Program-made: the position numbers and the translations under genes
The notes under the pieces: generated by a model
Database searches by the model: none
What the model saw: the letters and a program-made list of their open reading frames with translations, nothing else
Told to the model about the DNA's origin: nothing
In this document: one piece after another, positions 3,821-6,956 of the stretch
Numbering within the stretch: position 1 is the first letter of the stretch
How the letters are laid out: every line of letters begins with the position of its first letter
IMG/VR virus record: IMGVR_UViG_3300024344_003081
DNA from: a virus
Taxonomy: Duplodnaviria > Caudoviricetes
Reading direction: 5' to 3' (one strand)
DNA length: 64,000 nucleotides

Positions 3821-4063
3821 ATGACAAAATCAAAGTTCGTTGCGAAATTGATGAAGAAAGGAGAATTTCTCTCTTCAGGAACGTTTGAATCTTTGGAAGA
3901 AGCAAGATTGTGGGCGATGAAAGAAGCCAAATTGCTGATTTCTGATTTGGAAATGTTGAGAAGCACCAATATTGGTGACATAGTTGTTGAAATTGATAAG
4001 CATTTTACTGAATATGAGATTTCAACTGATGAACTTTTTAAGAATAGTGTGAGGGCAATATGA
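3821..4063 (+). CDS. hypothetical protein
   Basis: ORF directly after promoter copy 2. Confidence 0.6.
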   Translation: MTKSKFVAKLMKKGEFLSSGTFESLEEARLWAMKEAKLLISDLEMLRSTNIGDIVVEIDKHFTEYEISTDELFKNSVRAI

Positions 4064-5871: not shown

Positions 5872-5946
5872 TCCCTCGTAGTTCAGTGGTAGAACGGTAG
5901 ACTGTTAATCTGCTTGTCGTTGGTTCGAATCCAGCCGAGGGAGCCA
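5872..5946 (+). tRNA. trnN: tRNA-Asn(GTT)
   Basis: TCCCTCG/CGAGGGA acceptor, ctGTTaa loop, TTCGA, CCA. Confidence 0.95.
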
Positions 5947-5975: not shown

Positions 5976-6410
5976 ATGTTTGTAAAGATGGGTTCTCCTG
6001 CTAGAAAAAACAGAGCCTTTCATGTAAATATTGATAATCATGATGTTTGGAATTTAGATTCCACTCTTGCTCATATTATTCATCCTGCTCTTGTTCGTTT
6101 AAGGGAACGTGTACCACATTTTGGTTATCCAACCCCTTATGATGAAACAGAAGCATATCCAGAGCATTATTCTCAAGGATCATTTGAAGAAATTTTGGAT
6201 CGTGATGCAGAGAGCAAGTATTATGAAGAACTATGGATGGACAAACTTCAGAAAATGATTGATGCATTTGCAATGATTATTGATAAAGATGAAGACTATG
6301 ATGTTATTGCTCACCACGTAGATTATAAAGATGCAAGAAAAGCATGGTGGGATAAGATTGACGAAGGTCTGAATCTTTTCGCAGAGCATTATCAAGGTCT
6401 TTGGGATTAA
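5976..6410 (+). CDS. conserved phage hypothetical protein
   Basis: DVWNLDSTLA.II.P.L..W..KL.KMI.AF..GL.LF..Y..LWD motif; AGGA SD. Confidence 0.65.
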   Translation: MFVKMGSPARKNRAFHVNIDNHDVWNLDSTLAHIIHPALVRLRERVPHFGYPTPYDETEAYPEHYSQGSFEEILDRDAESKYYEELWMDKLQKMIDAFAMIIDKDEDYDVIAHHVDYKDARKAWWDKIDEGLNLFAEHYQGLWD

Positions 6411-6437
6411 AAATAAATTAAAATCCGAAAGGGGAGT

Positions 6438-6686
6438 ATGTTTGTACTTAAATATTGTGGTTCTTGAAATTATAGACCACAAGCAGAAAGTCTTTCCGCT
6501 AATATTAATAAATCTTTACTAGATACATGCGAAATTGAACAAGGAACAAAGGGCCAATTTGATTTATATCGAAACGGTGAATTGTTTTTAAGTAAAGATG
6601 AATTACAGAAATTTTTTACTTTTGAGGATGTACAATTCAAGTTGAAAGAGAAAGGACTTGGATTTTGGATGGAAAATTTGCGATAA
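6438..6686 (+). CDS. Rdx/SelW-like selenoprotein, 82 aa, in-frame UGA (Sec) at 6465-6467
   Basis: manual translation MFVLKYCGS(UGA)NYRPQAESLSANINKSLLDTCEIEQGTKGQFDLYRNGELFLSKDELQKFFTFEDVQFKLKEKGLGFWMENLR; CxxU and G..G.F.L..NG.L..SK motifs of the Rdx family. Confidence 0.8.
6482..6500 (+). promoter_or_regulatory. candidate bacterial SECIS hairpin
   Basis: AGC-A-GAAA[GTC]TTTC-C-GCT stem-loop, loop starting GU 23 nt after the UGA. Confidence 0.5.
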
Positions 6687-6689
6687 TGG

Positions 6690-6718
6690 TTGCTTTTTTT
6701 CTGATTTATTGCTATAAT
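6690..6718 (+). promoter_or_regulatory. sigma70-type promoter
   Basis: TTGCTT 6690-6695, 17 bp spacer, extended -10 TGC-TATAAT 6710-6718. Confidence 0.6.
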
Positions 6719-6737
6719 AATCTAATATAAGATTAAC

Positions 6738-6956
6738 ATGCCAAAAAAATATAAAAAGAAATTTAAAATATCAAGAGATGATCTGAATGTCAAAATTAAT
6801 GAATATTTGGAAAAGGGTGGGAAGATCACAAAACTGGAATGTATTATACCAGAACGACCTAGGACTGTACGGCAAGAAAGTCAAATGAAGAGTTTTAACA
6901 CTCCTGTAGTAGATCAAGATTTTTATGCTAGAGGAGCAGAAAAAGAAGCTGGATGA
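6738..6956 (+). CDS. hypothetical protein
   Basis: ORF after promoter; EYLEKGGKITKL motif. Confidence 0.55.
   Translation: MPKKYKKKFKISRDDLNVKINEYLEKGGKITKLECIIPERPRTVRQESQMKSFNTPVVDQDFYARGAEKEAG

Follow-up and report, generated by a model that had tools for sequence, protein, structure and literature searches.

A probable SelW-like selenoprotein gene with an in-frame UGA on an uncultured marine T4-like phage

The E. coli gene fdhF is the prototype of bacterial recoding through UGA, the selenocysteine insertion sequence (SECIS) and SelB, and a consensus for the bacterial element (bSECIS) was reportedly drawn up by Zhang and Gladyshev in 2005. The subject of the present work is a short gene of the SelW-like family, interrupted by one in-frame UGA, on a stretch of 64,000 nucleotides (nt) from a virus (Duplodnaviria; Caudoviricetes; IMG/VR record IMGVR_UViG_3300024344_003081). 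The whole of this stretch is referred to here as the window. In a marine survey, the SelW-like family counted 427 forms with selenocysteine (Sec) against 56 forms with cysteine (PMC2398784), and it has been reported to make up 11.3% of selenoprotein genes (PMC9402790). In families other than ribonucleotide reductase (RNR) II, plastocyanin and Cu-Zn superoxide dismutase, viral sequences are few or lacking (PMC9402790), and the viral selenoproteins named in reviews are the glutathione peroxidases (GPx) of poxviruses only (PMC8310308). The first-pass annotation of the window had remarked that phage selenoproteins are rarely reported, and indeed no report of a phage-encoded selenoprotein was found in the searchable literature.

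It is proposed here that the UGA of the window gene is decoded as selenocysteine by host machinery, and the probability of this is put at about 0.82. The gene is probably that of a genuine and functional selenoprotein of a phage, and the family to which it belongs is a known one. The interpretation given in the first-pass annotation is thus supported, each of its proposed checks that could be run having favoured it. We infer the selenocysteine itself, its supply by the SelA, SelB, SelC and SelD of the host, and the physiological substrate.

Reading frame, family and conservation

The gene lies between two open reading frames (ORFs), one of which ends at 6410, the next beginning at 6738. As first described, this gap holds a single frame interrupted by TGA alone, at codon 10. 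The frame runs from ATG at 6438 through TGA at 6465-6467 to TAA at 6684-6686, with no further stop, and its translation is MFVLKYCGS-U-NYRPQAESLSA...GTKGQFDLYRNGELFLSK, the motif being Y-C-G-S-[UGA]-N-Y-R-P. The features of the gene are the following.

6438..6686, + strand: probable SelW-like (Rdx family) selenoprotein gene; 82 codons, then TAA; assigned by Pfam PF10262 and the predicted fold
6427..6436, + strand: Shine-Dalgarno-like purine run (GAAAGGGGAG) upstream of the start codon; the spacing to the ATG is short in the window's copy
6456..6458, + strand: TGT codon of Cys7, first residue of the CxxU redox motif; residue invariant in 55 distinct sequences, with synonymous TGT/TGC variation
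6465..6467, + strand: in-frame UGA, codon 10, proposed selenocysteine codon; TGA in 86 of 93 related loci; aligned to the second Cys of the CxxC of homologues
6483..6499, + strand: SECIS-type hairpin; stem 6483-6489 with 6493-6499, loop GUC at 6490-6492
6528..6530, + strand: TGC codon of Cys31, third thiol kept in the phage clade, within the DTCEIE motif; all 55 distinct sequences have Cys here

The Shine-Dalgarno sites of the relatives are of the AGGAG type and stand, in the alignment, 5-8 nt upstream of an ATG or GTG start. An internal start downstream of the TGA was considered and rejected, as the first in-frame start, TTG at 6582, leaves just 34 codons. Cys31 is kept throughout the phage clade and not throughout the wider Rdx family. 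It could serve as a resolving or a glutathione-binding thiol.

Membership in the Rdx family had been suggested from the motifs. For scoring with hidden Markov models, Cys was substituted for Sec in the window protein. It was observed that Pfam Rdx (PF10262) matches residues 5-65 with 33.1 bits, above the gathering score of 22.6 (E 6.4e-8). This match, together with the conservation of the frame and its TGA in 86 related loci, lifts the frame beyond a chance one. The NCBIfam SelT/SelW/SelH models also match (E 8e-13 and 3e-7), both under their own cut-offs. The Campylobacter equivalog NF041051 gives 48.4 bits against a cut-off of 88, and TIGR02174 falls slightly short with 30.6 bits against 34.2. 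By Pfam and by fold, the window protein is a member of the Rdx family and not an equivalog of the Campylobacter protein.

Similarly, the AlphaFold2 model, for which 14 homologues served as input, has a predicted local distance difference test (pLDDT) of 85.9 and a predicted template modelling score (pTM) of 0.74. The order of its elements, beta-alpha-beta-beta-beta-alpha, is thioredoxin-like. When the model was compared by Foldseek with the PDB, ranks 1-23 were all Rdx proteins, with template modelling (TM) scores of up to 0.78; among them are the bacterial SelW-related structures 3dex, 2p0g, 2ojl, 2oka, 2fa8 and 2obk, as well as human MIEN1 and mouse SelW. The model places C7-G-S-U10 between strand E2-6 and helix H13-26. 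In alignments with MIEN1 and the SelW-related protein of V. cholerae (2p0g), the UGA codon falls opposite the second Cys of their CxxC. It had been claimed that the UGA falls exactly at the Sec position of this family, and the column of the second Cys in MIEN1, 2p0g and the Cys-form homologues is where it was found.

The conservation of the codon was followed over 93 related loci, namely 11 from IMG/VR, 80 kept of the 131 relatives on JGI/ENA metagenome contigs, and two in metagenome-assembled genomes (MAGs). The homologous codon is TGA in 86 of them, CGA in three (one lineage) and deleted in four; TGT or TGC was seen in none. The 86 TGA-bearing loci have 58 distinct N-terminal translations, and no further stop occurs in the 37 codons that follow. 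For codons 11-47, the median pairwise nonsynonymous divergence (dN) is 0.21 and the median synonymous divergence (dS) 1.19, with a median dN/dS of 0.164 over the 1539 pairs with dS > 0.3. In the nine codons before the UGA, those of Tyr6, Cys7 and Gly8 vary synonymously, the residues being unchanged. The residues kept before the UGA and the purifying selection after it thus indicate that both sides are translated as one protein.

A pseudogene or decaying remnant, produced by a nonsense mutation, would also present a lone premature stop nine codons in, in a region left unannotated by standard gene callers. It is highly improbable here. The same TGA recurs in 86 loci, no stop follows in the next 37 codons of their 58 distinct translations, and the sequence after the TGA is intact under the constraint just given, so that the degradation which would have spoken against a selenoprotein is absent. 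The Shine-Dalgarno site and the start codon are conserved too. Nor are the related loci assembly copies of one sequence, as they come from many studies and their protein identities to the window range from 53 to 99%.

The other simple reading is a deviant genetic code (table 4 or 25), in the phage or in its host, that assigns an amino acid to UGA. The ENA gene calls of the family were indeed made with TGA as Trp. Yet TGA is an ordinary stop in the window, in line with the initial remark that UGA is not globally recoded. TGA terminates 30 of the 85 ORFs in a greedy, non-overlapping set from the + strand of the window, and ATGA start/stop overlaps occur at 4060, 4627, 6953, 8665, 11700 and 13069. 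The coding cover of this strand under code 11 is 95.7%. Of the few stretches left uncovered, only 6411-6737 is filled by a frame that requires read-through of one TGA. Reading TGA as sense joins no other genes of the window, and the SelW-like gene alone needs read-through. The window thus shows no genome-wide reassignment of UGA in the sense of tables 4 and 25, and such a code may be considered practically dismissed.

The same gene calls explain what is found in protein databases. In a collection of 5.8 billion proteins, all 13 homologous proteins have Trp at the site, because the gene callers picked code 4, the DNA having TGA. It was further noted that many public Sec-form SelW-like proteins (P0002-P0014 and many of P0015-P0120) are code-4 translated, an artefact by which selenoproteins are hidden.

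A profile search over 1.84 billion representative proteins gave 108 relatives. In the more distant ones, the same column reads YCxxC (P0044, P0048, P0076, P0077) or YCxxW, and the W of the latter is TGA in the fetched DNA. Alternation between Cys and TGA at one column reads as the classical signature of a selenocysteine site. The expectation that relatives would have TGA or TGT/TGC at this codon was upheld: the phage clade has TGA in 86 of 93 loci and lacks TGT/TGC, and the distant homologues have Cys or TGA.

The codon was lost in two phage lineages. One of them (L025, L026 and L027) has CGA for Arg with the hairpin intact, and the other (L011, L073, L084 and L087) has a two-codon deletion (KYCSS--YYSQA). 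These lineages may be adaptations to hosts without Sec machinery.

The hairpin downstream of the UGA

A check for a SECIS element led to a SECIS-type hairpin downstream of the UGA, with covariation. It begins 16 nt past the UGA and spans nt 19-35, counted from the U of UGA as 1, with G26-U27-C28 in the loop. The family consensus over nt 19-35 is GCAGAAA-GUC-UUUCUGC, a 7-bp stem with a 3-nt loop. Across 49 distinct sequences, standard pairs fill 93.6% of the cells, and sliding the 3' partners by 1-3 columns lowers this to at most 64%. None of the 500 shuffles matches the observed pairing or the covariation score. At pair 27-39, which joins two free wobble positions, A-U, G-C, C-G and G-U were all observed. 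In one subclade, two inner pairs of the hairpin are changed on both sides. Compensatory changes are found at three pairs overall; another subclade has a slipped hairpin with a bulge.

The synonymous sites inside the hairpin are frozen. Glu17 is GAA in 44 of 44 sequences, Ser18, whose AGT codon is the source of the loop G-U, is AGT in 46 of 46, and Leu19 is solely CTT or TTG. For comparison, Leu27 is mostly TTA, and Glu32 and Glu34 are mixed GAA/GAG. The 17-mers of six relatives fold with -3.6 to -7.8 kcal/mol (z-scores -1.7 to -3.5).

The hairpin is also present outside the phage clade. Five SelW-like genes of Sec form, all more distant and taken from loci whose GC content ranges from 28 to 67%, were examined, and each has it in the corresponding position, the loop being GUY or GGUCU and the G-U lying at nt 26-27; in one of these genes, the 17 nt are identical to those of a phage subclade. 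In two Cys-form genes, the Ser codon is AGC and an equivalent hairpin was not found. Since the five Sec-form genes share the place and the loop and the two Cys-form genes do not, the phage hairpin is, as far as sequence can tell, the own SECIS of the SelW-like family.

Several observations weigh against this reading and against selenocysteine at the UGA. The window's own 17-mer, in which the third pair is an A.C mismatch, folds with only -1.2 kcal/mol (z-score about 0), and the 66-nt fold of the window is no better than its shuffles (z-score 0.02). RNAalifold retains the three outer pairs alone. No Rfam SECIS model matched in the gathering or the permissive scan, as is to be expected given how poorly Rfam models bacterial SECIS elements. 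Furthermore, the conserved peptide A-E-S-L-S-A largely fixes five of the seven stem pairs, so that the pairing counts only in part as independent evidence. Most of the hairpin also survives in the clade from which the UGA was lost. Lastly, no Cys-codon orthologue exists within the phage clade (0 in 93 loci), the substitutions being just Arg or the two-codon deletion.

The weak fold of the window's copy raises the question whether the family encodes selenocysteine as such, and the window copy with its closest TCC-codon relatives decodes the UGA poorly or not at all, owing to a hairpin weakened by the A.C mismatch. The difference between -1.2 kcal/mol and the values of the relatives, along with the 66-nt fold, is what would be expected then. 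Against it, the mismatch is common to several diverged sequences (the window, L013, L061) whose frames are intact, and the lineage of the window gains an extra pair, A6482-U6500, the loop G-U and the spacing being unaltered. In addition, a contig from an RNA library covers the UGA site of the window copy. Poor decoding of this kind is considered unlikely.

It may also be asked whether the UGA is read as a standard residue, that is, Trp or Cys by a near-cognate tRNA or through a phage suppressor tRNA, the hairpin merely stimulating read-through. Phages with stop-codon suppression exist, gene callers give W in these genes, and selenium incorporation is what we infer. That the UGA occupies precisely the Cys/Sec column of the redox motif CxxC/CxxU is however hard to reconcile with such a reading, as are the five more distant Sec-form genes with the same UGA and the hairpin at the same place. 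Insertion of Cys would predict TGT/TGC variants, which are lacking in all 93 loci. The window has four tRNAs (Gly, Tyr, Asp and Asn), none of which is a suppressor tRNA or a tRNA-Sec, and no other gene in it needs suppression. A standard residue at this site is thus quite unlikely.

If the UGA is decoded as selenocysteine, the sequence of events would be as follows. The ribosome would reach the UGA at codon 10, and the downstream hairpin with its apical G-U would be bound by the host's SelB.GTP.Sec-tRNA(Sec). Selenocysteine would then be inserted in place of termination. The product, made during infection by an uncultured marine T4-like phage, would be an 82-residue SelW-like thiol/selenol oxidoreductase. 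Its Cys7-x-x-Sec10 centre would sit in the loop that connects strand 1 to helix 1 in a thioredoxin-like fold, probably with selenenylsulfide cycling. Such a protein may act as a redox helper in infection, by analogy with the thioredoxin and glutaredoxin of T4-type phages.

Carrier phage, neighbouring genes and host

The surroundings of the gene in the window are made up of the following.

5872..5946, + strand: tRNA-Asn(GUU), about 500 nt upstream of the SelW-like gene; at the same distance in L001-L007, L012-L014, L018, L019 and L092
5976..6410, + strand: upstream neighbour, a phage protein of unassigned function (phrog_11543, E 2.4e-16)
6710..6718, + strand: TGCTATAAT, an extended -10-like box read from the sequence, 20 nt upstream of the ORF at 6738
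6738..6956, + strand: downstream neighbour, a small ORF without a family match, from the ORF list and the PHROG comparison

The box suggests that the SelW-like gene and the downstream ORF may be transcribed separately. The neighbours in the window match the PHROG families phrog_11543 and phrog_1987, an endolysin and two exonucleases, and tRNA genes lie close by. In loci further removed, a T4-type major head protein (phrog_138, E 4.5e-112) adjoins the gene; it is about 74% identical to its counterparts in the Methylophilales phage Melnitz, the Pelagibacter phage HTVC008M and the cyanophage S-CAM9. In other distant loci, a RuvC-like resolvase or a cyanophage-type purN adjoins it. The gene was not found in GenBank phages by nucleotide or protein search, and the core exonuclease of the window shares no more than 50% identity with its counterpart in any cultured phage. 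Taken together, the phage-gene neighbours, the lack of a GenBank copy and the divergent exonuclease place the carrier, judged by its genes, in an uncultured, deep-branching marine group of T4-like phages.

Further downstream, a co-oriented island at 14708-63170 encodes many radical S-adenosylmethionine (SAM) enzymes, a carbamoyltransferase, a tryptophan-halogenase-like protein and glycosyltransferases. A related contig (G001:C1) matches it at 74-89% identity only, so this part of the genome is more variable than the rest. In one of the related loci (L010:4786-4882), a tRNA of 97 nt lies about 1.6 kb downstream of the gene (Rfam tRNA, 48.6 bits). Its variable arm is long and its anticodon is GUU (Asn), and it was rejected as a tRNA-Sec.

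Contigs from the same group of phages were found in two public MAGs, a Chloroflexota (NAT137, G001) and a Nitrososphaerales from ALOHA (G002, L093), both of which were weighed as host leads. In the NAT137 bin, two contigs are 95-96% identical to the window: C18 (PAAV01000009.1, 28 kb), which holds L092, and C19 (at least 27 kb). A third, C1, of at least 134 kb, is 74-89% identical across the radical SAM island. These three come together to about 190 kb with about 31% GC, and the cellular contigs of the bin have 38-40% GC. The presence of the phage contigs in this bin is either contamination or a host signal.

Through a whole-bin search, no match to tRNA-Sec, selA, selB or selD was found on C1, C18 and C19 (about 190 kb), which stood in for the remainder of the phage genome. 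The window, too, has none of the Sec machinery genes selA, selB, selC and selD. All strong matches in the bin fall on its cellular contigs: C61 has tRNA-Sec (61.8 bits), selA (532.6) and selD (360.7, with a TGA of its own), and contig C20 has selB (318.5 bits). Since the Sec genes are absent from the window and the phage contigs and present in the cellular part, a dependence of the phage on the SelA, SelB and tRNA-Sec of its host, as had been supposed at the start, would fit these sequences.

The selD of the bin (L116, C61:24536-25459) has an in-frame TGA followed by a GCAG-GUA-CUGC hairpin, and the cellular part also encodes a SelW-like selenoprotein of its own (L109, C58:127049-127264), with the SECIS in a different register. 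These two indicate that this marine Chloroflexota lineage uses selenocysteine. As regards the host of the phage, Chloroflexota is a weak lead from a shared bin and not proof of a host link. The lead stays weak because the GC content differs (38-40% vs 31%) and the SECIS register of the SelW-like genes differs.

Other marine bacteria have to be considered as well. The Pelagibacter genomes are without selC, and Actinomarina, with about 33% GC, has a complete Sec system (2026 preprint, 10.64898/2026.04.03.716425). Radical SAM cassettes are on record in T4-like myophages that infect SAR11 (PMC7029224). A SAR11 host would be a problem for decoding as selenocysteine, Pelagibacter being without selC, and this counts on the opposite side. 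That the host is an abundant marine lineage without Sec machinery (e.g. SAR11), in which the UGA is decoded by phage-supplied factors or by a novel route, is regarded as very unlikely. If it were true, a UGA with a hairpin would not mark a Sec-using host and would instead point to a virus-borne recoding system.

The sequencing runs that hold DNA of the window are bulk marine or subsurface metagenomes only, with no single-cell or culture run among them. As for RNA, a contig of 151 nt from a metatranscriptome library covers 6403-6545 and has the same UGA. It is weak evidence of expression, since carry-over of DNA is possible.

Comparison with known systems

Relatives of the gene occur on at least 131 metagenome contigs from many different assemblies, some of them Tara Oceans records. 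If the proposed decoding is true, a share of SelW-like proteins, the most abundant marine selenoprotein family, in ocean surveys is probably viral. Standard gene callers would overlook such genes or mis-translate Sec as W, which matters for phage annotation pipelines. A phage gene that needs selA, selB, selC and selD would also be a built-in host-range marker, by which the host of a deep-branching phage group without a cultured relative could be narrowed. The gene also offers a simple natural system for the advantage of selenium chemistry during infection.

When set beside the SECIS of E. coli fdhF, the phage hairpin is likewise located inside the ORF soon after the UGA and has a G-U in the apical loop. 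The phage stem core GCAG...CUGC resembles the fdhF element GCAGGUCUGC. The loop G-U is at nt 26-27 in the phage gene, whereas in fdhF it is at about nt 23-24. The phage stem is much weaker and A-U rich, with 7 bp and no bulged U, and it is a putative SelB site.

T4-type phages carry thioredoxin and glutaredoxin genes (NrdC, NrdH) whose CxxC motifs use sulfur only. The window protein is, similarly, a small phage redox protein with a thioredoxin fold, encoded among small phage genes. The families are nevertheless different.

Among viruses, the GPx of molluscum contagiosum virus and fowlpox virus (PMC8310308, PMC1802603) are virus-encoded redox selenoproteins that use the Sec machinery of the host, as is proposed for the phage gene. 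These are however genes of eukaryotic viruses with the GPx fold and a eukaryotic SECIS, in contrast to a phage gene whose product has the Rdx fold and whose SECIS, of bacterial type, is internal to the ORF.

The closest match remains the bacterial SelW-like family itself (PF10262 Rdx; TIGR02174 CXXU_selWTH). The fold, the CxxU motif and the UGA column are the same, and so are the distance of the in-ORF hairpin, the G-U of the loop, the marine habitat and the great excess of Sec forms over Cys forms. The differences are that the phage clade has the extra Cys31 (DTCEIE) and no Cys-form members, and that the window gene is on the genomes of T4-like phages, which PMC2398784 and PMC9402790 did not report. 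The gene is an ordinary member of a known family using a known mechanism, and the part not reported before is its phage carrier.
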